Source of the DNA: Candidatus Eremiobacteria bacterium
Lineage (GTDB): Bacteria > Vulcanimicrobiota > Vulcanimicrobiia > Vulcanimicrobiales > Vulcanimicrobiaceae
Reading direction: 5' to 3'
Assembly (NCBI GenBank): GCA_963737065.1
Contig: CAVTRC010000001.1
Span: forward strand, 2,336,001-2,400,000
DNA: 64,000 nt
Shown here: one piece after another, positions 3,319-56,061 of the stretch
Layout of the letters: each line of letters begins with the position of its first letter
Position numbering within the stretch: position 1 is the stretch's first letter
Program-made: the position numbers and the translations under genes
Notes under the pieces: generated by a model
The model's database searches: none
The model's input: the letters and a program-made list of their open reading frames with translations, nothing else
What the model was told of the DNA's origin: nothing

Positions 3319-3837
3319 CTACGGAAGCACAATCCCTTCGAACGCGAGCAGGCGCCGGCGCATGGAATTCGGGCCCGCACCCTTGATGTGGCCGTCTGCG
3401 CCGACGACGCGGTGGGCGGGAATCAATAGATCGAGCGGCGTTTTTCCCATTGCTGCAGCGACGCCGCGATGCGAGAGCGGTGCACCGATCGCGCGCGCGA
3501 CGTCCGCATACGAAATGAGTTCGCCCGTTTCCAATTGAGCGACGAGACGCCATACGGCAATTTGAAACGGCGTGCCTCCCAGCCGCAACGGCAGATCGAA
3601 GCGACGCAAGCGTTTCTCGAAATATCGGCGCAACTGTTTCGATGCTTCTACGAGGAGCGCGTTGTCGCGCGGCGGTCGCCGTGCCGGCATACGCGCGCGG
3701 AATGTGCACGCCGTTATCTCGCAATCGGTTGCTGTGACAAAGAGCCGCGCGCCCAGTGGCGTCGCAACGACGAGCGCGTCGTTTTCCACGCGGCGGTCTA
3801 CCACGCGTGGGAGGGTTTGTCTTGCGACGGGGTGCAA
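3319..3837 (-). CDS. Ogt/MGMT-family protein with PAHR active site (alkyltransferase-like); start uncertain
   Basis: GTPFQIAVW, SYADVA, IPAHRVV instead of PCHRV. Confidence 0.85.
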   Translation of the reverse strand: MHPVARQTLPRVVDRRVENDALVVATPLGARLFVTATDCEITACTFRARMPARRPPRDNALLVEASKQLRRYFEKRLRRFDLPLRLGGTPFQIAVWRLVAQLETGELISYADVARAIGAPLSHRGVAAAMGKTPLDLLIPAHRVVGADGHIKGAGPNSMRRRLLAFEGIVLP

Positions 3838-3848
3838 GCAAGACCGCA

Positions 3849-4706
3849 GTGAAGACGTTGTTCATTACCGGAGCAAGCCGTGGAATCGGTCTTGCGATTG
3901 CCGTGCGCGCGGCGAGCGAGGGCGCCAATGTTGCGATCGTCGCGAAGACGACCGAACCGCACCCCAAACTGCCCGGCACGATTTATACGGCTGCGGAAGC
4001 AATCGAAGCGGCAGGCGGCAACGCGCTTCCAATCGCGTGCGATATCCGTTTTGAAGAACAGGTCGCGGATGCCGTCGCAAAGACGGTCGAACGTTTTGGC
4101 GGTATCGATGCGTGTATCAATAACGCAAGCGCGATTTCGCTGACACCCACAGTTGAAACCGACATGAAGCGCTATGATTTGATGAATGAGGTCAATGCGC
4201 GCGGGACGTTTCTGTGTTCGAAATTGACCGTACCGCATTTGGCGAAGTCGTCGAACGGGCACATTTTGAACCTCGCGCCGCCGCTCGATATGGACGCGCG
4301 GTGGTTCGCCCGGCACACCGCCTATACGGTCTCAAAATTCGGCATGTCGATGTGCACGCTCGGGATGGCCGAAGAGTTCAAGCCGATCAACGTTGCGGTG
4401 AATTCGCTGTGGCCGCTCACCGCAATCGATACCGCTGCGGTGCGCAACGTTCTGGGCGGTGCGGCGATGGCTGAGGCGTCGCGCAAACCGCAGATCGTCG
4501 CAGATGCCGCATGGCTGATTCTCAATCGGCCCGCCGCCTCGTGCACCGGCAATTTTTTCATCGACGAAGATGTCTTGCGCGAGTCCGGCATAACGAATTT
4601 CTCGGTATACGCGAATCACCCAGGCGCGTCGCTCGTTCCCGACTTCTTCGTGTCGGACGAGACAGTAAAACGCTCGTCGACGCCGCTTCTGCCGTTACCG
4701 TGGTAG
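3849..4706 (+). CDS. Short-chain dehydrogenase/reductase (HSDL2-like)
   Basis: TGASRGIG, NNASAI, YTVSK, HPKLPGTI; GTG start at 3849. Confidence 0.9.
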   Translation: MKTLFITGASRGIGLAIAVRAASEGANVAIVAKTTEPHPKLPGTIYTAAEAIEAAGGNALPIACDIRFEEQVADAVAKTVERFGGIDACINNASAISLTPTVETDMKRYDLMNEVNARGTFLCSKLTVPHLAKSSNGHILNLAPPLDMDARWFARHTAYTVSKFGMSMCTLGMAEEFKPINVAVNSLWPLTAIDTAAVRNVLGGAAMAEASRKPQIVADAAWLILNRPAASCTGNFFIDEDVLRESGITNFSVYANHPGASLVPDFFVSDETVKRSSTPLLPLPW

Positions 4707-11462: not shown

Positions 11463-11550
11463 GGAGAGGTGGCAGAGCGGTTTAATGCAGCGGTCTTGAA
11501 AACCGCAGAACGTGTTGAGCGTTCCGAGGGTTCGAATCCCTCCCTCTCCT
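11463..11550 (+). tRNA. tRNA-Ser (anticodon TGA)
   Basis: GGAGAGG/CCTCTCC acceptor stem, GCGGT-CTTGAAA-ACCGC anticodon arm, long variable arm, GGTTCGAATCC T-arm; CCA not encoded. Confidence 0.95.
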
Positions 11551-17136: not shown

Positions 17137-17703
17137 TTGCTCAAGGGCTTTGTTCTCGGCATCGTTGCCGTCATCGTGATCGGGCTGATTGCGGCGTATG
17201 TCGGCATCACGCAGGGCCTCCTGATTCCAGCGAACGCCGACGCGCGCCCGGGCAAAATGGAAACGTGGGCGGCTCGCGTGTCGCTGCGCGCGACCTTGCG
17301 GCGACAAGCCTCGCGCAGTCCGAATCCCTTGCCGACGTCAATGCCCAATCTGCTCGACGGCATCAAATTGTACGGCGAAAACTGTTCGGTTTGCCATGGT
17401 GTTGCGGACGGACGCGCGAGCACGATTGCGCGCGGGCTCTATCAAAACGCGCCGCAACTCGCCAAAGACGGCGTGGAAGATGATCCGGACGGTATTACGT
17501 ATTGGAAGATCTATCACGGCATCCGGTTGACCGGTATGCCGTCATTCGGGGCAGCGCTTTCCGACAATCAAATCTGGGCACTTTCGCTCTTTCTGAAACA
17601 CATGGATAAACTTCCGCCGCAAGCAGAACGAGCGTGGAAGAATTTGAAAAATCCCGCACCGGCTGCGCCGGCGAGCGAGCACTCAAAGAAAGGCGGGCAG
17701 TAA
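17137..17703 (+). CDS. Membrane-anchored c-type cytochrome
   Basis: N-terminal TM helix, CSVCHG, GIRLTGMPSF. Confidence 0.88.
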   Translation: MLKGFVLGIVAVIVIGLIAAYVGITQGLLIPANADARPGKMETWAARVSLRATLRRQASRSPNPLPTSMPNLLDGIKLYGENCSVCHGVADGRASTIARGLYQNAPQLAKDGVEDDPDGITYWKIYHGIRLTGMPSFGAALSDNQIWALSLFLKHMDKLPPQAERAWKNLKNPAPAAPASEHSKKGGQ

Positions 17704-17734
17704 GTTGCTGATCGATGCGAGAACCGAAACACAT

Positions 17735-18667
17735 ATGCTAGACGTGGAACGGCTCGATCTGCGCGGGTTGCCCGTGTGGGAGCGTCCGACGCGCGTGCTC
17801 GACGTTTTCGACCGCTTGCCGCCGGGGCAAGCCGTCGTGTTCATCACCGAAAACGAGCCGCGTGGTCTAGGCACGCGCATCGAAGAGTCGCGCAAGCATG
17901 AATTGATTCTCGATACCCGGCGCGTCGGCGATCGTGAATGGCACGTCGTAATGACGCGAGCAGCCGTTGAGACCGATGCGCCCTCGCCGATGGGAATTCT
18001 CAAACGCTCACGCGTGTTCTCTCATCTCGACGAGGTCTCGCGTAGCAAGCTCGCCGCCGTTGCCACGCTGCATACCTCGCGCCGCGGACAGACCGTCGTC
18101 ATGGAAAACAGCGATTGGCCCTTCATCGGCGTCGCATTCGAAGGCGTCTTCGCGCTCGCGAGCCGGAACGGCACGTCACGCCAGCGGATCTTCCACGAAA
18201 TTTTTCCGTACGAAGTCTTCGGTGAACTCGAACTCTTCGACGGCGCGCCGACGATCGGACGCATCATCGTGCTTTCGAAAGCTGCGCGCTACTTGCGCTT
18301 GCCGAACGATGCCGTGTTGCAAATTGCCGAGCATTCGCCGAAGCTCTACGAGGCACTCGGCCGCGTTGCGGCGCAACACGCGCGCGACCTCGCCGAGTTG
18401 CTCGTCAATCAGAACACGATGCCGATCATCGCGCGTATCGCACAGGTGTTGCTGCCGTACGCAATGCCCGAGAAGGGACTGAGCGCGGCAATGCCGCCGC
18501 TCCCGAACATGACGCAGGCGCAGATCGCAGCGGCGGCCGGAACGGTAAAGGAAGTTGCTGCACGCGCGATCGCGGAGCTCGAATCGAAGAATTTACTCCG
18601 TCGCGAACGGGGGCATGTCCGGTATCTCGATCGTCAGGGCTTGATCGATCTGATACGCGAGTCGTAA
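17735..18667 (+). CDS. Crp/Fnr regulator with N-terminal DUF2249-like domain (alternative TTG start at 17705)
   Basis: LDLRGLPVWER...LPPGQ...ENEPRGL; FGELELF; MTQAQIAAAAGTVKEVAARAI HTH. Confidence 0.8.
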   Translation: MLDVERLDLRGLPVWERPTRVLDVFDRLPPGQAVVFITENEPRGLGTRIEESRKHELILDTRRVGDREWHVVMTRAAVETDAPSPMGILKRSRVFSHLDEVSRSKLAAVATLHTSRRGQTVVMENSDWPFIGVAFEGVFALASRNGTSRQRIFHEIFPYEVFGELELFDGAPTIGRIIVLSKAARYLRLPNDAVLQIAEHSPKLYEALGRVAAQHARDLAELLVNQNTMPIIARIAQVLLPYAMPEKGLSAAMPPLPNMTQAQIAAAAGTVKEVAARAIAELESKNLLRRERGHVRYLDRQGLIDLIRES

Positions 18668-18679
18668 GGCCGCCGCCAA

Positions 18680-19438
18680 TCACCGCGGTTCGCGAGGTTT
18701 CGAGAGACCCAACCAAAACGTTTCAACGCCCGCGAGCATCACTGCGCCCGCGCGGATGAAACGTGCCGGCGAGAATCGCGGCTTTGCAAACGCGGCCGCG
18801 AGTTCGTCATCGGTGTGCGCAGCGTGCTGGTCCTCGAGCGCGTCGTGCCATGTCCAGAATCCCAGCGGGAGATCGGGCCGGCGCGTCGCTTTGATCGTGC
18901 GAAGGCCAAGAATCAACTGTTTCCAAAATCCGGCCGCCGCCCAATGTTCGATCGCGTACGACGCGCCGGCAGCAGTTGATTCATCGTGCGAGCCATACCA
19001 TTCCAGAAGCGTGTCGCAGAACGCGAGCGTCTCGGCCGAACCGTGTTCGCGTTTGCCGATCTCCTTCCACGTCAACCCGATCGATTCGGCGAATTGCACG
19101 AGCCATTCGAAGTGTCCGGCTTGAAACCTGAACGTGCCGCCTTCCACCGATCCGGTCGGCGAGAAGCCGACGCCGAGCTCATTCAGCAAAATCTCTTTGC
19201 CCGCGTGGTAACTCTCGAGGTCCGGTGCGTTGATGCACTTGCGCAATTGCGCCTCGATGAAGAGATGACTGAAGACTGAGAATTGCACCGTGAAGTGGCG
19301 CAGTTCGTCGTCGCTCGCGGCGCCCGTCGCAAACCACTCCGTGTACGGATTATGCTGTACGATCGGATGCGCTCCGATTTCCTCGTCGACGGCGCATCGA
19401 AACGCGTCGACTGCTGATGTGGGCGCTGCTGCGATCAT
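18680..19438 (-). CDS. Heme-oxygenase-like diiron (HDO; PqqC/TenA/CADD-fold) redox enzyme
   Basis: NELG...HFEWL, YAIEH, FWTWHDALEDQHAAH ligand pattern; AGGAG RBS before ATG 19438. Confidence 0.75.
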   Translation of the reverse strand: MIAAAPTSAVDAFRCAVDEEIGAHPIVQHNPYTEWFATGAASDDELRHFTVQFSVFSHLFIEAQLRKCINAPDLESYHAGKEILLNELGVGFSPTGSVEGGTFRFQAGHFEWLVQFAESIGLTWKEIGKREHGSAETLAFCDTLLEWYGSHDESTAAGASYAIEHWAAAGFWKQLILGLRTIKATRRPDLPLGFWTWHDALEDQHAAHTDDELAAAFAKPRFSPARFIRAGAVMLAGVETFWLGLSKPREPR

Positions 19439-19469
19439 GATCGATCTCCTGGTACAAAACAAGAGCAAT

Positions 19470-19500
19470 AAAAAAGCCGCCTCGCTGTCGGCGAGGCGGC
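19470..19500 (-). terminator. Intrinsic terminator in the leader of the HDO gene (attenuator)
   Basis: GCCGCCTCGC-CGACA-GCGAGGCGGC-TTTTTT on the minus strand, 31 nt upstream of the start codon. Confidence 0.85.
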
Positions 19501-19524
19501 GTGTGTTCTAGCGGACGGTATTCG

Positions 19525-19602
19525 CTAAGACAACGGCAACCTGCAGCCGACTTCATCGAAGCGGCTGTAATAATACGAAACGGTTGCGGGCTGTCTGGAC
19601 AT
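19525..19602 (-). CDS. Putative Tyr-rich leader peptide MSRQPATVSYYYSRFDEVGCRLPLS
   Basis: Manual translation; tandem TAT TAT TAC; located between promoter and terminator. Confidence 0.7.
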   Translation of the reverse strand: MSRQPATVSYYYSRFDEVGCRLPLS

Positions 19603-19614
19603 GGTTTAGCGAGG

Positions 19615-19643
19615 AGTCTAACATGAAGGACGCGGCAATGCAA
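19615..19643 (-). promoter_or_regulatory. Sigma70-type promoter of the leader/HDO transcript
   Basis: TTGCAT-N17-TAGACT with extended TGn. Confidence 0.65.
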
Positions 19644-19836
19644 TACATCGTCCGTCCTTGCGACGGCATGTTGCGGCTTCGCGTTCGCAGGTGCCACGTT
19701 TGCCGCGAACGGCCCGGCGGCGGGTCATGACCCAACCGATGTGTCGCGACGCTCAGGCGCAGGGAAAGCGCGATTCGCGTCGCAGCAGTCGCCGCACTGC
19801 CCGCACGCGGCATCGTGCTGCGTGGCCCGTTTTACA

Positions 19837-20190
19837 ATGAGTTTTTTCTTGAAGTGGCTGAAGGCGGAAACGACCGCGCACATCGGATTGCGTCCGCATC
19901 GCCTCGTTGAGCTGCCCGTTGACTTCGACACCGCGTACGGTCGCGTTCTCCACGCGATTGAAGTAACGCTCGGCGCGAACGTCTACATCGACGATCGCAA
20001 CGGCCGCTTTATCGAAGCGGGCTTCGGACTGGTGAACAACGAGCGCGTGCGCGTGAGCTTCGAAACCGAATCGGCGTTCGCAACTTGCGTGCGCGTCGAA
20101 GCGTACTTCCCCGCGGGCGCCAAAATTCCGAAGAAGTCCGCGGCGGTCGACGTATTAGCCGATACGCTCGAAGCCGGTATAACGGCGTAA
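19837..20190 (+). CDS. Hypothetical protein
   Basis: ATG 19837, protein-like composition, 36-nt convergent overlap with serS. Confidence 0.6.
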   Translation: MSFFLKWLKAETTAHIGLRPHRLVELPVDFDTAYGRVLHAIEVTLGANVYIDDRNGRFIEAGFGLVNNERVRVSFETESAFATCVRVEAYFPAGAKIPKKSAAVDVLADTLEAGITA

Positions 20191-21438
20191 AACGTCCGGT
20201 ACTTCGATCGAGCCGTCGGCTTGTTGGTAATTTTCCATAATTGCAAGGAGCGTGCGGCCGACCGCGAGCCCCGAACCGTTCAGCGTATGCACGAGTTCGG
20301 GTTTCGACCTTGGATCGCGCCGAAAGCGGATCGATGCACGGCGCGCCTGGAAATCGGTGCAGTTCGAGCACGAACTGATTTCACGGTAGCCTTTCGAACT
20401 CGGCAACCACACTTCGAGGTCGTAGGTCTTCGCGGAATTGAAGCTGACGTCGCCCGCGCACAACGCCATGACGCGATGCGGAAGCCGAAGCTCCTCGAGG
20501 AGCGTGCGTGCGTCCTCGGTTAAGCGCTGGAGCGCCTCCAACGATTGCTCCGGTTGGGAAAGCCAAACGAGTTCTACTTTTTCGAACTGATGTTGACGAA
20601 TCAGTCCGCGGGTGTCTTTGCCGGCCGCACCCGCTTCTTTGCGGAAGCAAGGCGTATACGCCGTCATTTTCCGCGGCAGCGACTGAATATCCAGAATTTC
20701 GTCGCCATGCAACGCGGTCAGCGGAACTTCGGCCGTTGGAATCATGAACAGGTCCGCATCGCGGTCGATGAACATCGCATCGGAAAATTTCGAAAGCTGC
20801 CCGGTGCTCCACATCGTACCGCGCGAAACGAGCAGTGGAGGAATGACTTCGAGGTAACCGCGTTCGTTGGCGCGGTCCAAAAAATACTCCACGAGCGCGC
20901 GCGAGAGGCGCGCACCTTTCCCTTTCAAGATCGCAAAACGGCTGCCGGATAGCTTTGCGGCGCGTTCGAAGTCGAGAATGTCGAGCTCTTCGCCGAGTTC
21001 CCAATGCGGCTTCGGCGTGAACGGGAATTCGCGCGGCGTTCCCCACGAACGCACGCAGACGTTGTCTGCTTCGCCCGCTCCGTCGGGGACCGAGTCATCC
21101 AGAACGTTCGCCGTATTTTCTAGAAGCGATCGCAGCGTCGAGTCGGGATTATCGGGCGCGAGCGCCTTTGCACGTTCTTCATCGCGCGCGATCCGCTGCG
21201 AAAGCTCATCGAGCTTCGGCTTGAGATCCCGTGCCGCGGCGGCTTTATCCGGCGCTTTACCGATCTCGGCCGACAAGCGATTCTTCTCGGCTTTTGCCGT
21301 TTCGACGTTCGCAAGGGCGGAGCGGTACTCTGCGTCCAAGCGCAGAACGTCATCGACGAACGACGCATCATTCCCGCGACGCTGTGCCGACCGCCGAACG
21401 CGATCGGGATCGCGTCGTAGTAAAGCGATATCGAGCAT
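20155..21438 (-). CDS. serS: Serine--tRNA ligase
   Basis: MLDI, IPTAEVP, CFRKEAG, RQHQFEKVE, EISSCSNCTDFQARR, TLNGSGLAVGR. Confidence 0.98.
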   Translation of the reverse strand: MLDIALLRRDPDRVRRSAQRRGNDASFVDDVLRLDAEYRSALANVETAKAEKNRLSAEIGKAPDKAAAARDLKPKLDELSQRIARDEERAKALAPDNPDSTLRSLLENTANVLDDSVPDGAGEADNVCVRSWGTPREFPFTPKPHWELGEELDILDFERAAKLSGSRFAILKGKGARLSRALVEYFLDRANERGYLEVIPPLLVSRGTMWSTGQLSKFSDAMFIDRDADLFMIPTAEVPLTALHGDEILDIQSLPRKMTAYTPCFRKEAGAAGKDTRGLIRQHQFEKVELVWLSQPEQSLEALQRLTEDARTLLEELRLPHRVMALCAGDVSFNSAKTYDLEVWLPSSKGYREISSCSNCTDFQARRASIRFRRDPRSKPELVHTLNGSGLAVGRTLLAIMENYQQADGSIEVPDVLRRYTGFERIG

Positions 21439-22692: not shown

Positions 22693-23790
22693 GTGATCCG
22701 TCCGGCGCCTGAAATCGAGGCGATTCCCGCGATGACGCCGTTCATCGGACCGGAACAACTGATGCGCGAAGGCGGCCGCAGCGAGCTCGTGCGTCTCGGC
22801 GCAAACGAGAGCGCGTTCGGGCCGTCGCCGCGCGCCGTGACCGCGATGGCTGCGGAGCTGCCGCGTATTTCGTGGTACGGCGATCCCGAGTCGTACGAAC
22901 TGCGCACGGCTCTATCAGCGAAACACGGCTGCCGCGTCGAGGAGGTCGTCGTCGGCGCGGGCATCGACGACCTGATGGGCCTCGTCGTGCGTGCATTTGT
23001 TGCGCCCGGCGCTGCAGCGCTGACGACGCGCGGATCGTATCCGACCTTGAACTATCACGTCACCGGTTACGGCGGGCGGCTGGTATATGCGAACTACCGC
23101 GATGACGGACGGCCGGATCTCGACGCATTGCTTGACGTTGCGACCCGCGAAAAGCCATCGGTCGTGTATCTCGCGAATCCCGACAATCCGAGCGGAACGT
23201 TCATTCGCAAGGACGACATGATTGCGTTTTTCGATGCGCTTCCGCGCGACGCCGTCTTTCTCTTGGACGAAGCGTACGCCGATTTCGTCGACGAGACCGA
23301 CCTCTTGCCCGCGCACATCGAGGACCGTTTGATTCGCGCTCGTACGTTTTCGAAGGCATACGGCATGGCGGGCGCGCGCATTGGTTATGCGATCACGACG
23401 GAACCCAACGTCGCGACGCTGCAGAAAATTCGCCTCCACTACGGCGTGAATCGCAACGCGCAGATCGGCGCGCTGGCTTCGCTCGAAGATGAACCGTTTC
23501 GATCCTATGTCGTCGATGAAGTCGCCGCCGCGCGCGCTGATTACTACGCGCTCGCAACGCAACTCGGTCTTGCATGGATCGAGTCCTTCACGAACTTCGT
23601 CTGCATCGATGTGGGAACCGCCGATCGTGCAACGCGCGTGATGAACGAACTGCTCGCGCGCGGCGTGTGGATTCGCAAACCCGGCCTGCCGCCGCTCGAT
23701 CGTTTCGTACGCGTGAGCGCCGGGACGAAGCCGATGCGCGATGCCTTTGCCGCGGCGTTCAGAGCGGTCCTTAACGAGGTTCGCGCGTGA
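22693..23790 (+). CDS. Class I/II aminotransferase (histidinol-phosphate aminotransferase-like)
   Basis: LGANES, ANPDNPSG, LDEAY, RTFSKAYGMAGARIGY. Confidence 0.85.
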   Translation: MIRPAPEIEAIPAMTPFIGPEQLMREGGRSELVRLGANESAFGPSPRAVTAMAAELPRISWYGDPESYELRTALSAKHGCRVEEVVVGAGIDDLMGLVVRAFVAPGAAALTTRGSYPTLNYHVTGYGGRLVYANYRDDGRPDLDALLDVATREKPSVVYLANPDNPSGTFIRKDDMIAFFDALPRDAVFLLDEAYADFVDETDLLPAHIEDRLIRARTFSKAYGMAGARIGYAITTEPNVATLQKIRLHYGVNRNAQIGALASLEDEPFRSYVVDEVAAARADYYALATQLGLAWIESFTNFVCIDVGTADRATRVMNELLARGVWIRKPGLPPLDRFVRVSAGTKPMRDAFAAAFRAVLNEVRA

Positions 23791-42347: not shown

Positions 42348-43211
42348 GTGGATCGTTATGAAGCACCATCCCGAGAGTTGAAGCTCGCGCGGCGCGATGC
42401 GCGCGCCGGCCGCACGATCGTGCGGTTGCACAGCGGCGCATCGTTCGGTGGTGACACGCTCGCAATCTGTGCGGGTCCGTGTTCGGTCGAATCCGGCGAA
42501 CAGATTGATGCCACGGCAAAGTCCGTATCGGCCGCAGGCGCAAACGTTTTACGCGGCGGCGCGTTCAAGCCGCGCACGTCGCCGTACGCGTTTCAAGGCT
42601 TGGGCGTGCGCGGACTCGAGCTGCTACGCGCGGCAGCCGATCGTCATGGGCTCGCGGTTGTAACCGAAGTGCTCGACCCGCGCGATGTCCCAACCGTCGC
42701 ACGTTATGCCGATCTGCTGCAAATCGGCGCGCGCAATATGCAGAACTTCTCGTTATTGCGCGAGGCGGGTGAATCGGGTAAACCGGTGTTGCTCAAGCGC
42801 GGTCTCGCCGCTACGGTCGATGAATGGTTGATGGCCGCGGAATACATTCTCGTCGGCGGCAATGACAACGTCGTGCTCTGCGAACGAGGCGTGCGATCGT
42901 TCGATCCGGCGACCCGTAACTTGCTGGACCTTTCCGCCGTTCCGTTGCTTGCGGAGCTGACCCACCTGCCGGTGATCGTCGATCCTTCGCACGGCACGGG
43001 AATCGCGCGTCTCGTCGAGCCAATGGCGCTTGCCGCCGTCGCCGCCGGAGCGGACGGATTGCTGGTAGAAGTTCATCCCGATCCGATAAGCGCGATTTCC
43101 GACGGGGCACAGTCGCTGACCCCGGAAGCGTTTACCGCGATGACGCGAGCGCTCGCGGCGGTTGCCTCGGCTGTCGGCAGGCGTTTGCCTGCAGCATCGT
43201 TAGCGGCCTAG
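42348..43211 (+). CDS. aroF: DAHP synthase (class I-beta)
   Basis: AGPCSVES, GGAFKPRTSPY, QIGARNMQN, VDPSH. Confidence 0.93.
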   Translation: MDRYEAPSRELKLARRDARAGRTIVRLHSGASFGGDTLAICAGPCSVESGEQIDATAKSVSAAGANVLRGGAFKPRTSPYAFQGLGVRGLELLRAAADRHGLAVVTEVLDPRDVPTVARYADLLQIGARNMQNFSLLREAGESGKPVLLKRGLAATVDEWLMAAEYILVGGNDNVVLCERGVRSFDPATRNLLDLSAVPLLAELTHLPVIVDPSHGTGIARLVEPMALAAVAAGADGLLVEVHPDPISAISDGAQSLTPEAFTAMTRALAAVASAVGRRLPAASLAA

Positions 43212-53582: not shown

Positions 53583-54896
53583 ATGGATTTTGCGGCGGCG
53601 CAGAATTACCTGATCGGGACGATCAACGAAACCGTATCGCGGCGGATGCCGTATCGGCTAGAGCGCATGCGCACGTTTATGTCCGAACTGGGCGATCCGC
53701 AAGATACGTATCCGACGATTCACATCGGCGGCACGAGCGGAAAAGGTTCGACGTCAACCATGGTCGCCGCAATGATCGGCTCGGCAGGGAAACGCGTCGG
53801 GCTGCATACCAAGCCGCACTTGAAATCGATGACCGAGCGCGCGCGTATCAACGGCTTGGCGATTTCCGAGGAACGGTTCGCGCATATTTTGCAGTCAATG
53901 ATGCCGGCGATCGATCGCACGGCGCAAGTGGCCGGGCGTCCGACGTATTACGAGACGTTGCTTGCAATTGCGTTTGTTTATTTTGCCGAGGAGCACGTTG
54001 ACGTCGCGGTCATCGAAGTTGGATTGGGCGGCCGCGTGGACGGAACCAACGTCATTACGCCGCTCGTTTCGGCGATTACGTCGATCGGATTCGATCACAT
54101 GGACGTGCTCGGCGAAAGGCTTGAAGAGATCGCGCTCGAGAAGGCGGGTATTGCAAAGTCCGGCGTTCCGCTCGTGAGTCTCGTCGAAGACGCCGGTGCG
54201 CGCGCCGTTGTCGAGGAAGCTGCGCGGCGCGCCGGCGCGCCGTTCATCGACGTCGCGGCGACTGTGAGCATCGAGGATGTACGGCTTTCTCCCGACGGAC
54301 AGTCCTTCGCCATCATCACGCCCGGCACGCGCTACGGTCTTTCGACGCCGATGCTCGGCGAATTTCAACGCCGGAACGCATCGACCGCAATCTCCGTTGG
54401 GGAAGCGCTCCCGCCGGCATTTCGTCCTACCGTTCGCGACGTAGAAGAAGCGTTCGCGTCGCTGACGATTCCCGGGCGCATGGAGTACTATCCGGGACAT
54501 CCCGGCGTGCTCTTCGACATTGCGCACAACGCGGAAAAAGCGGAGCATCTCGTGCGGTCACTGCAAGAGCACTTTCCCAATCGCCGCTTCACGTTCGTCG
54601 TCGCGATCGGCGAAAGCAAGGACTCGTACGAGATCCTGCGGCGCTTCGCTGCGCTACCGCTCAAGTTCATCTTTACGTCGTTCGAAATCGCCGGGCGTAC
54701 GGCGACGAAGCCTCAACGATTGGCGGCGATTGCGGAGTCGCTCGGTTCGTGGGGACGAGTCGTGCAAGATCCGGTCGAGGCGATGGAGATCGCGCGCCGG
54801 ACGAGCGGCGCCGATGAAATCATCGTCGTCACGGGTTCTACCTTTATCGTTGCAGAGATCCGAGGGTGGTGGTTAGGGACGATCGTCGCGGCGTAA
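53583..54896 (+). CDS. folC: Dihydrofolate/folylpolyglutamate synthase
   Basis: HIGGTSGKGST, EVGLGGRVDGTNV, DIAHN, VTGS. Confidence 0.95.
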   Translation: MDFAAAQNYLIGTINETVSRRMPYRLERMRTFMSELGDPQDTYPTIHIGGTSGKGSTSTMVAAMIGSAGKRVGLHTKPHLKSMTERARINGLAISEERFAHILQSMMPAIDRTAQVAGRPTYYETLLAIAFVYFAEEHVDVAVIEVGLGGRVDGTNVITPLVSAITSIGFDHMDVLGERLEEIALEKAGIAKSGVPLVSLVEDAGARAVVEEAARRAGAPFIDVAATVSIEDVRLSPDGQSFAIITPGTRYGLSTPMLGEFQRRNASTAISVGEALPPAFRPTVRDVEEAFASLTIPGRMEYYPGHPGVLFDIAHNAEKAEHLVRSLQEHFPNRRFTFVVAIGESKDSYEILRRFAALPLKFIFTSFEIAGRTATKPQRLAAIAESLGSWGRVVQDPVEAMEIARRTSGADEIIVVTGSTFIVAEIRGWWLGTIVAA

Positions 54897-55717
54897 TGCG
54901 CGTTCGCGCCAAAGACTTCGCGTGGGGAGGTTGCACGTATTTGATGGCGATCGTCAACGTCACGCCCGATTCCTTTTCCGGTGATGGACGCAAGCCCGAT
55001 GATGCGATCGAACACGCGGTGCGACAATGGCAGGCCGGCGCCGACATTCTCGATATCGGCGGTGAGTCGACGCGTCCCGGACACGAACCGGTCGACGACG
55101 CATTAGAGATCGAACGCATCCGTCCCGTCATCAGCGCAATCCGCCAGCGCCTTCCGCAAGCAATCATTTCCGTCGATACGTACAAGCCGGACGTTGCGCG
55201 CGCCGCGTACGCAGCGGGCGCGGACATGATCAACTCCGTGTGGGGCGCACCAAACGAGTTGATCGACGTTGCCGCCGAACTCGGGATGCCGCTCGCGGCG
55301 ATGCATAATCAGCGCGATACGCAGTATCATGGCGACGTCGTCGATGCCGTCGTCGAATTCTTGAGCGATTGCGTGGACCGCGCGAACGCTCGCGGACTTG
55401 CGGGACGCGTATTGCTGGATCCGGGAATTGGTTTCGGCAAGACGCCGAACCAAAACATCCGCGTGTTGCGCGGACTTCATCGCGTCTGCGCGCTCGGCTA
55501 TCCGACATTGCTTGGAACGTCACGAAAATCGACGATCGGAAAATTGACGGGGCGCGAAGCGCACGAACGGATTTACGGAACGGCCGCAACGACGGCGCTC
55601 GGTATCGCGGCCGGGATCGACATCGTCCGCGCGCACGACATTGCCCAACAACGCGACGTGATCAGCGTCGCGGACGCAATCGTGCGTAACTGGAGGCCGG
55701 CCGGATGGACCGGATAA
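54896..55717 (+). CDS. folP: Dihydropteroate synthase
   Basis: NVTPDSFS, GGESTRPG, DPGIGFGK, SRKS. Confidence 0.96.
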   Translation: MRVRAKDFAWGGCTYLMAIVNVTPDSFSGDGRKPDDAIEHAVRQWQAGADILDIGGESTRPGHEPVDDALEIERIRPVISAIRQRLPQAIISVDTYKPDVARAAYAAGADMINSVWGAPNELIDVAAELGMPLAAMHNQRDTQYHGDVVDAVVEFLSDCVDRANARGLAGRVLLDPGIGFGKTPNQNIRVLRGLHRVCALGYPTLLGTSRKSTIGKLTGREAHERIYGTAATTALGIAAGIDIVRAHDIAQQRDVISVADAIVRNWRPAGWTG

Positions 55718-56061
55718 GCCTGCGAAACATCGTCGCGCACGGTAAACACGGTGCCAACCCCGGCGAACGCGATCGCGCGCAGCCGCTCCATATCGAAGTC
55801 GATCTGCTCGTCGATCTCAGCCGCTCCGGGCTCACCGACCAGCTGCACGACACCGTCGACTACGCGGTCGTGTATGAAACGATCGTGAAGATTGTCGAGG
55901 ATCGGTCGTTCCAGCTACTCGAGCGCGTAGCATCGGTCATTCTCGACGAAATCTTTCGCGATCCGCGAATTGTGCGCGCTTCATTGGCGATCGCGAAGCC
56001 CGATGTCCTCGACGGCGCGACGCCGATCGTCCGGCTCGAACGCGACAACAGGAAAGTATAG
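55705..56061 (+). CDS. folB: Dihydroneopterin aldolase
   Basis: HG...ER..Q, TVDY, LLERVA, KP. Confidence 0.93.
   Translation: MDRISLRNIVAHGKHGANPGERDRAQPLHIEVDLLVDLSRSGLTDQLHDTVDYAVVYETIVKIVEDRSFQLLERVASVILDEIFRDPRIVRASLAIAKPDVLDGATPIVRLERDNRKV

Follow-up and report, generated by a model that had tools for sequence, protein, structure and literature searches.

A putative tyrosine-specific leader-peptide attenuator upstream of a heme-oxygenase-like enzyme gene in Eremiobacterota and Obscuribacterales

Introduction

The leader-peptide attenuators of the textbooks are specific for Trp, His, Phe, Leu, Thr and Ile/Val. Here we describe a putative attenuator with a run of tyrosine codons from a Candidatus Eremiobacteria bacterium (GenBank assembly GCA_963737065.1, contig CAVTRC010000001.1, positions 2,336,001 to 2,400,000 of the forward strand; this whole stretch of 64,000 nucleotides is called the window, and positions are counted from its first letter). 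In the window, a short open reading frame (ORF) with three consecutive Tyr codons and an intrinsic terminator precede the gene of an enzyme with the fold of the heme-oxygenase-like diiron oxidases (HDOs). No Tyr-specific attenuator was found in Rfam 15 or in the literature searched, which took in few subscription journals, so that an older description is possible. The remark in a preliminary description of this DNA, made from the sequence alone, that no Tyr attenuator on an HDO gene had been described agrees with these searches.

The closest described regulators are the amino acid attenuators of E. coli, of which the trpL and pheL leaders are described in PMC11802643. The locus resembles E. 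coli trpL, hisL, pheL/pheA and pheST in having a short ORF in which codons for one amino acid stand in tandem. It also shares the mutually exclusive terminator, antiterminator and anti-antiterminator of classical attenuators, in which the antiterminator is set free when the ribosome stalls and blocked when it reaches the stop codon, as found here in silico. Unlike these systems, it appears to sense tyrosine, its leader has no Shine-Dalgarno site and is apparently leaderless, its target is an orphan HDO-fold enzyme rather than a recognised biosynthetic gene, and its hosts are uncultured Eremiobacterota and Obscuribacterales. A Tyr-containing leader peptide that controls an aromatic amino acid gene is known from Corynebacterium glutamicum, where the aroR leader upstream of aroF contains a Phe-Tyr-Phe motif, acts through ribosome stalling and is reported to answer limitation for Phe but not the availability of Tyr (PMC11802643). 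The aroR leader has a single Tyr codon, whereas the leaders described below have three to six and lack a run of Phe. For the start of translation, the closest parallel is provided by the mycobacterial polycysteine ORFs, which are likewise short and leaderless, contain a run of codons for a single amino acid and attenuate downstream genes (bioRxiv 10.1101/834739); they differ in the amino acid and the phylum, and the output in the present case is a canonical intrinsic terminator. As for the enzyme, the closest described proteins are CADD and NePabS, which make p-aminobenzoate (pABA) by cutting a Tyr of their own chain and taking the amine from a Lys (Tyr27 and Lys152 in CADD) (PMC11965152). These proteins share the seven-helix heme-oxygenase-like bundle with the enzyme of the window, and tyrosine is central to both systems. 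Unlike them, the enzyme of the window shows only 16–17% identity and scores far under the cut-off of the CADD family model TIGR04305, and its regulatory logic would suggest that it makes tyrosine and does not spend it.

Results

Layout of the leader in the window

All elements of the leader and the enzyme gene are read on the minus strand, in the following order.

19643-19638, minus strand: –35-like hexamer TTGCAT, weak by consensus; a TTGC-type hexamer lies at the same place in relatives
19623-19615, minus strand: extended –10 element TG-t-TAGACT (TG 19623-19622, TAGACT 19620-19615), with a 17-nt spacer to the –35 hexamer
19602-19525, minus strand: leader ORF of 25 codons and a stop, encoding MSRQPATVSYYYSRFDEVGCRLPLS (ATG at 19602, TAG at 19527-19525)
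19596-19582, minus strand: strand preceding the Tyr codons, which is the 5' side of the anti-antiterminator in the OFF fold and pairs with 19528-19541 in the minimum free energy fold
19575-19567, minus strand: regulatory codons TAT TAT TAC (three Tyr), in frame inside the leader ORF
19567-19544, minus strand: hairpin 1, CAGCCG/CTTC-GAT-GAAG/T/CGGCTG, bulged, whose 5' arm begins in the last Tyr codon
within 19567-19544, minus strand: 3' arm of hairpin 1, GAAGTCGGCTG, which holds the antiterminator strand
19551-19487, minus strand: antiterminator of the ON fold, with GTCGGC (19551-19546) paired to GCCGAC (19492-19487), found when the ribosome footprint is masked
19500-19476, minus strand: intrinsic terminator with a 10-bp G+C stem, GCCGCCTCGC / GCGAGGCGGC, and the loop CGACA, followed by T6 at 19475-19470
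19450-19446, minus strand: AGGAG, the Shine-Dalgarno site of the enzyme gene; relatives have GGAG-type sites too
19438-18680, minus strand: HDO-fold enzyme ORF of 252 aa (ATG at 19438, stop at 18680)

The promoter, the leader ORF, its Tyr codons, the hairpin, the terminator and the AGGAG site lie where the preliminary description had placed them. The enzyme ORF also follows AGGAG as had been described, but its ATG is at 19438 and not at 19437. The terminator has a predicted energy of –21.7 kcal/mol and is also recovered by a terminator scan, and the 141-nt leader RNA folds at –57.1 kcal/mol compared with –38.4 ± 3.9 for 200 shuffled sequences (z = –4.83, no shuffle as good). The sequence GCCGAC straddles the 5' arm and the loop of the terminator and is the complement of GTCGGC, and the inner helices of the ON fold also tie up the 5' arm of the terminator. 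A simple promoter scan of the window does not list the pair TTGCAT/TAGACT, which matches 7 of 12 consensus positions; we call it a promoter because TG-n-TA...T and the TTGC-type –35 are conserved in the alignment of leaders described below. Rfam (release 15) gave no match to the leader at gathering thresholds, and at E ≤ 10 only chance matches to the terminator with 9–10 bits.

Conservation of the leader among relatives

Scanning one genome per species gave 495 matching stretches; 441 of them encode a relative of the enzyme, and the best 80 were analysed. These loci belong mostly to Eremiobacterota (= Vulcanimicrobiota), with about a dozen records labelled Obscuribacterales, Melainabacteria or 'Cyanobacteria bacterium', whose enzymes show 63–66% identity. 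At least 150 nt of upstream DNA was required, which three loci did not provide, leaving 78 upstream regions (the window and 77 loci). Leader ORFs were identified by a search anchored on the Tyr run, and 58 core leaders were aligned (alignment A2).

The 200 nt upstream of the enzyme gene have a near-identical layout in almost all loci. Of the 78 upstream regions, 75 hold a short ORF with at least three Tyr codons, which begins with GTG in one case and with ATG in all others; it is followed by a strong hairpin and a T-run in 74/75 (in L070 the T-run is interrupted). The expectation of the preliminary description that homologs would carry both a Tyr-run ORF and a terminator upstream is thereby borne out. 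At least three Tyr codons are consecutive in 65 of the 78 regions, with runs of three, four, five and six codons in 18, 31, 11 and 5 of them. In L003 (YYSY), L046 (YYRYY) and L077 (YYPYY) the run is interrupted by non-Tyr codons inserted in frame. A divergent leader variant encoding MFAPAYLIGSYQYRSASESVEPPIPVEP is found in L069, L073, L074, L076, L078, L079 and L080 (the L069 group). Outside the leaders such runs are rare: the only occurrence of three or more successive TAY triplets on both strands of the window (128 kb) is that of the leader itself, and 66 occurrences in the leader zones of the loci compare with 4 in the remaining ~995 kb (both strands).

Upstream of and within the run, the alignment varies in the manner of coding DNA. 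Between the ATG and the Tyr run, leaders gain or lose nucleotides in multiples of three, the length of the run differs by whole codons only, and TAT and TAC interchange; this signature of 3-nt indels and synonymous swaps favours translation of the leader. TAT and TAC occur in a ratio of 196:151 in the leaders and 183:230 in the window, where TAT is thus not rare, and the bias toward TAT in the leaders is only slight. The residue preceding the run is always small (Ala, Ser or Gly). Downstream of the run, on the other hand, nucleotides are conserved while the reading frame differs among leaders, and the stop codon falls either inside GTCGGCTAG or ~24 nt further 3'. For example, a 1-nt indel between L030 and L033 turns ...GRSDGFRLGTPLL into ...GRPMGFG and shifts the stop codon, and all RNA elements are kept. 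A search of the leaders for a conserved peptide core or recognition sequence, as in precursors of ribosomally synthesised and post-translationally modified peptides, revealed none beyond the Tyr run, since sequence, frame and length of the peptide vary over conserved RNA. A codon-wise Tyr run combined with a frame-shifting tail speaks against both an untranslated RNA and a functional peptide tail, and this pattern argues that the Tyr run has been selected as codons and the remainder of the leader as RNA.

The leaders of the two phyla can be aligned with each other. The Obscuribacterales leader, which encodes the peptide MTARNAYSYYYYTYSLGVG, can be matched to Eremiobacterota leaders over its whole length, and 79 of 135 positions, including GTCGGCTAGCT and the terminator, are identical between the leaders of L053 and L061. 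Judged by these alignments, the leader-enzyme cassette is homologous in the two phyla. The leader and the enzyme travel together, as every other neighbour varies.

Promoter, leaderless start and terminator

Positions T5, G6, T8 and A9 of A2, which correspond to the TG and TA of the extended –10 box, are invariant in 58/58 leaders. A TANNNT box preceded by TG lies 6–14 nt before the leader start codon in 65 leaders, and the distance is 9–10 nt in 47 of these 65. Transcripts usually start 6–8 nt after the –10 box, so that the 5' end would fall at the AUG or within ~3 nt of it. Thus, the spacing suggests that the leader ORF is probably read from a leaderless or nearly leaderless mRNA, which would fit both the absence of a Shine-Dalgarno site and the near-universal ATG. 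The leaderless start had not been noted in the preliminary description. It should be noted that the Obscuribacterales leaders have no TANNNT box at this distance and may be led differently.

The terminator pairs in 99.1% across A2, with compensatory changes at three pairs; in L027, L050, L059 and L062 the stem CTCGC/GCGAG has become CCCGG/CCGGG. Among the 64 loci with a trusted enzyme start, the gap between the end of the terminator stem and the enzyme gene is 0–42 nt in every case (median 26.5), and in many loci the T-tract abuts the Shine-Dalgarno site of the enzyme. A gap of at most 42 nt leaves no space for a promoter of the enzyme's own, and the enzyme gene would therefore be transcribed by read-through only.

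Alternative folds and ribosome position

Folded with no ribosome, the full leader takes the OFF fold, which has four parts: hairpin 1, the terminator, a helix between the 5' end and the segment after the stop codon, and a helix between the segment preceding the Tyr codons and the segment after hairpin 1. With the footprint of a ribosome on a Tyr codon masked, the leader takes the ON fold, in which GTCGGC, a GG-rich segment and TTGC pair with GCAA, the 5' arm of the terminator and its loop (GCCGAC), enclosing a small hairpin. The folding with and without masking that the preliminary description had suggested thus yields the two states expected of an attenuator, and the mutually exclusive folds that it had read from the complementarity of GTCGGC and GCCGAC are supported in silico, both of them pairing above controls in A2. 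In all, 74.1% of A2 cells are paired in the OFF fold compared with 37–43% when partners are slid by 1–3 columns, and 80.3% in the ON fold compared with 27–50% in the slid controls. When cells altered on both sides are counted, and also when covariation is scored, both folds beat 500/500 shuffles. Among the individual helices, hairpin 1 pairs in 83.5% across the 58 sequences, with changes on both sides at three pairs, and helices of the pre-Tyr type are the weakest, pairing in 54–67%. The antiterminator pair 98-179 of A2 is GC in 27, GU in 13 and AU in 7 sequences, and pairs 114-166 and 120-160 show changes from CG to UA.

We further folded the transcripts of 74 leaders, truncated before the 3' arm of the terminator, with the ribosome at different positions, and counted the leaders in which at least 50% of the 5' arm of the terminator is sequestered (the 74 include five mis-parsed terminators, those of L024, L030, L033, L040 and L046).

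Ribosome on the first Tyr codon: 5' arm sequestered in 72/74
Ribosome on the last Tyr codon: 5' arm sequestered in 67/74
Ribosome at the stop codon: 5' arm sequestered in 34/74
No ribosome: 5' arm sequestered in 51/74

The geometry of the leaders was also compared, with the five mis-parsed cases dropped (n = 69). The 5' strand of the antiterminator starts 12–27 nt past the first base of the last Tyr codon. Coverage of at least 30% of this strand is reached in 0/69 leaders by a ribosome at that codon and in 61/69 by one at the stop codon.

The HDO-fold enzyme

The enzyme scores 25.4 bits against Pfam PF14518, below the cut-off of 28.9. Its AlphaFold model (pLDDT 87.4, pTM 0.84) is all-helical and has the seven-helix heme-oxygenase-like bundle. 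The best Foldseek matches are structures of CtCADD (8va9, 1rcw and 8vag) with E-values of 4e-6 to 8e-6, target TM-scores of 0.80–0.82 and 16–17% identity, followed by BesC, PqqC, a CADD-like Nostoc protein, HrmI, HamA, TenA, SznF and UndA; the probability is 1.00 for CADD, BesC, PqqC, HrmI, SznF and UndA. The model and these matches uphold the heme-oxygenase-like assignment made in the preliminary description, which had named CADD, PqqC and UndA. Membership in the CADD family itself was rejected, as the enzyme scores 18.5 bits against TIGR04305 with a cut-off of 200. A family profile search of the sequences in the PDB returned no relative, only one chance match of 12 bits, and a search of a protein atlas found only generic look-alikes of TenA, PqqC and PF14518. 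By its predicted structure, the enzyme is an HDO-fold protein nearest to CADD, in a family without assigned function. This family is large, with 3282 homologues at E ≤ 0.001; the best 120 are 66–82% identical, and the named ones among them belong to Eremiobacterota (Baltobacteraceae, Cybelea, Aquilonibacter and Tumulicola).

Residues E82, E87, H109, E164, H198, E202 and H205 are invariant in 27/27 sequences. Most HDOs are defined by a metal ligand set of three His and three carboxylates on the core helices (PMC13108848). The invariant residues could supply such a set, as mapped by motif and not by superposition. In particular, H198-x3-E202-x2-H205 resembles the motif of the third HDO helix. 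Tyr32, in the N-terminal helices, is nearly invariant, but the published NePabS peptide can be aligned in three different ways, which makes an equivalence with its Tyr ambiguous. The enzyme is unusually rich in Phe and Trp, with 18 and 9 among 252 residues; the family means are 7.3% and 3.5%, compared with 3.7% and 0.9% in the long ORFs of the window.

Gene neighbourhood

The gene directly downstream of the enzyme, 17705-18667 on the plus strand, encodes a Crp-type regulator with DUF2249 and cNMP-binding domains and is convergent, as the preliminary description had noted. This regulator and a cytochrome c gene, together at 17137-18667 (+), converge on the HDO gene, and 12 loci have the pair downstream; a gene of the fatty-acid-hydroxylase family stands between the pair and the HDO gene in L008 and L015. 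Upstream of the leader, serS occupies 20155-21438 on the minus strand, which is the strand of the leader, and a 149-aa ORF at 19741-20190 (+) has no family match. In L001, L004, L008 and L069, a DUF4010 membrane-protein gene lies between serS and the leader on the opposite strand. Compared with L001:1574-2986, the corresponding segment 19644-20154 of the window lacks ~1.1 kb at the place of DUF4010, of which ~70 nt are left. When the ORFs of all loci were clustered, no partner gene was shared by more than 16 loci. The candidates serS (upstream in 16 loci only), DUF4010, the DUF2249-Crp regulator and cytochrome c were rejected as partners, as they reflect the synteny of close relatives.

The enzyme gene is not alone everywhere. 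The preliminary description had called it lone, which holds in the window, but in seven loci clearly, and in up to nine, it is directly followed on the same strand by a gene of the ornithine cyclodeaminase family that resembles mu-crystallin/ketimine reductase (L045, L020, L030, L033, L043 and L052, perhaps also L004, L026 and L044). In L045 this gene (3765-4694, plus strand) overlaps the HDO stop codon by 4 nt. Its closest match is 4bv8 (mu-crystallin/ketimine reductase, E = 2.5e-78), together with archaeal alanine dehydrogenase, and no NCBIfam model reaches its cut-off. Where this gene is present, the attenuator would thus control a two-gene operon.

Further associations come from a domain survey of twelve longer homologues and of 30 proteins that match the HDO part of one of them. 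The following additional domains were found.

P0121: mu-crystallin domain
P0127, P0130, P0143, P0146 and P0147, and P0132 by alignment: HgmA-like cupins
P0125, P0126, P0128 and P0131: fragments of 4-hydroxyphenylpyruvate dioxygenase (4HPPD)
P0151: Glyoxalase-type domain
P0137: UbiA prenyltransferase
P0144: M48 peptidase

Many tails of these more distant homologues (P0121-P0152) are rich in Arg, Pro and Ser and resemble frameshifted translations of high-GC DNA, so that some of the 'fusions' may be merged neighbours. Adjacency is indicated either way, which ties the enzyme in other lineages to the chemistry of 4-hydroxyphenylpyruvate and homogentisate.

As to the metabolic genes of the window, a type I-beta DAHP synthase is encoded at 42348-43211 (+; 421.7 bits, cut-off 335) and a hisC-like aminotransferase, below cut-offs, at 22693-23790 (+); no Tyr-run leader precedes either gene. 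No tyrA, phhA or pabA/B/C-like genes were found in the 64 kb. A folate cluster (a folC-like Mur ligase, folP and folB) at 53583-56061 (+), 35 kb from the enzyme, points to a need of the organism for pABA. At gathering threshold, Rfam matches the window only at an 88-nt tRNA gene, 11463-11550 (+).

Discussion

Proposed mechanism

The ORF, the Tyr run, the terminator and the alternative pairings, all conserved in the 58 core leaders and beyond, make up the layout of a Tyr-codon leader-peptide attenuator that the preliminary description had recognised. Transcription would begin a few bases before the AUG at the conserved extended –10 element, and the leader would be translated without a Shine-Dalgarno site as a leaderless ORF. 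When charged tRNA-Tyr is plentiful, the ribosome would pass the three Tyr codons and reach the stop codon, where it would hide the 5' strand of the antiterminator; alternatively, the naked RNA would fall into the OFF fold. The 10-bp terminator could then form, and RNA polymerase would halt with 37 nt still to go to the enzyme gene. Under a shortage of charged tRNA-Tyr, the ribosome would stall on the Tyr run; this would melt the pre-Tyr helix and, in hairpin 1, the 5' arm, and the freed GTCGGC and the bases following it would pair with the 5' arm of the terminator, permitting read-through into the HDO gene. By analogy with known attenuators, we infer that read-through rises on Tyr shortage.

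Several observations weigh against this mechanism. There is no Shine-Dalgarno site before the leader ORF, and its translation hinges on the presumed leaderless start. In the absence of a ribosome the 5' arm of the terminator is sequestered in most of the folded leaders (see above), and thermodynamics alone thus separates the two states imperfectly. The number of pairs with changes on both sides is not above that in shuffles (220/500 and 444/500), and the comparison with slid controls is biased toward the tested folds because a single member of the alignment (L016) supplied the structures. The antiterminator strand is left uncovered by a ribosome at the stop codon in L056 and in the seven leaders of the L069 group, whose stop codon lies too far downstream; the latter have only three scattered Tyr codons and a longer, 13-bp terminator. 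Finally, no qualifying leader ORF was found in L068, L071 and L072, although L071 has an ORF with two adjacent Tyr codons and L072 has little upstream DNA and an uncertain enzyme start. Taken with these points, an attenuator mechanism remains highly likely in our judgment, and that it is ribosome-mediated, acts on transcription and is specific for tyrosine is only slightly less so.

Role of the enzyme

The logic of known attenuators implies that the enzyme should raise the supply of tyrosine. One candidate reaction is an O2-dependent 4-hydroxylation of Phe, which would fit clusters with hppD and hmgA. Another candidate is that 4-hydroxyphenylpyruvate or Tyr is formed from prephenate or arogenate by oxidative decarboxylation, which would fit the reductive-aminase-like partner, hppD and UbiA.

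A tyrosine-forming role has to be weighed against four observations. Partner genes in other lineages are tyrosine-catabolic, and CADD, the closest solved fold, consumes tyrosine. No aromatic-biosynthesis gene is a conserved neighbour in the clustered loci. The depletion of the cognate amino acid that might be looked for in such an enzyme is absent, as Tyr makes up 1.6% of its residues compared with 2.0% in the ORFs of the window. We therefore put forward a tyrosine-forming role tentatively, regarding it as possible with the balance tipping slightly to the other side. The broader statement, that the enzyme is tied to tyrosine or 4-hydroxyphenylpyruvate metabolism, is probably correct.

Alternative explanations

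The alternative that survives best is that the Tyr-run peptide is the substrate of the enzyme, whose CADD-like cleavage of the peptide Tyr side chains would yield a 4-hydroxybenzoate- or pABA-type ring; the terminator would then mainly set a high ratio of peptide to enzyme, and attenuation could coexist. The closest solved folds are those of the self-sacrificing pABA synthase CtCADD, and both CADD and NePabS cleave protein-borne Tyr (PMC11965152, PMC13108848). The invariably small residue before the Tyr run also speaks for this reading, and the need for pABA is indicated by folC-like, folP and folB genes, which however lie 35 kb from the enzyme. The homologue P0137 is joined to a UbiA prenyltransferase domain, and the UbiA family uses 4-hydroxybenzoate or homogentisate. 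On the other hand, conservation of the peptide is confined to the Tyr run, with a tail that varies in frame and length, and the L069 group retains leader and terminator with scattered Tyr only. A merely leaky terminator needs no conserved antiterminator, no anti-antiterminator and no spacing matched to the ribosome footprint, and the score against the CADD family model is less than a tenth of its cut-off. On this evidence we consider the substrate explanation unlikely. Very slightly less probable still is a bifunctional leader, an attenuator that also encodes a sacrificial Tyr-run peptide cut by a CADD-like oxygenase into such a ring. If true, it would turn the single-turnover self-sacrifice of CADD into a multi-turnover system with a dedicated throw-away peptide.

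Within the framework of a Tyr-codon attenuator, the leader might also read the decoding capacity of tRNA-Tyr, for example its modification state, with an enzyme that acts on tRNA-Tyr or on translation. Consecutive Tyr codons are reported to be especially sensitive to the pseudouridine 35 made by RluF in tRNA-Tyr (PMC13602947), and the leaders slightly favour TAT. The Foldseek matches, however, include no RNA-acting enzyme with the HDO fold, the partners elsewhere are small-molecule aromatic enzymes, and genes for tRNAs or their modification are absent among the conserved neighbours, serS being present in its 16 loci through synteny. This explanation seems to us very improbable. We place in the same very low class the possibility that the short ORF and the terminator form an independent small gene or small RNA to which expression of the enzyme is unrelated: like an sRNA gene, the unit combines its own promoter with a strong terminator, but it always accompanies the enzyme gene while other neighbours vary, and the short gap in 64/64 loci leaves no space for another promoter. 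The least probable explanation, an untranslated structured RNA (a riboswitch or a TRAP-like protein-binding site) that recognises UAU/UAC repeats, would account for the strong structure and the RNA-level conservation 3' of the run, but it is at odds with a start codon at a fixed distance from the –10 box, a run that is always in frame and changes by 3-nt indels and synonymous swaps, a stop codon that always precedes the terminator, contiguous triplets that number only three to six, and a leader with no Rfam match beyond chance even at E ≤ 10.

Significance

The kind of regulator proposed here, a ribosome-mediated attenuator, is itself known; new are its apparent specificity for tyrosine and apparent leaderless start, the target gene and the host phyla. 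Its occurrence in two phyla of uncultured bacteria, together with the apparent leaderless start, would widen where and how attenuation operates. For an enzyme family of thousands of members (3282 matches) without assigned function, the attenuator may serve as a natural label. Together with the 4HPPD, homogentisate-dioxygenase-like, UbiA and ketimine-reductase genes that accompany the enzyme in other lineages, it makes a hypothesis testable, namely that tyrosine or 4-hydroxyphenylpyruvate can be made with O2 and independently of pterin and NAD.

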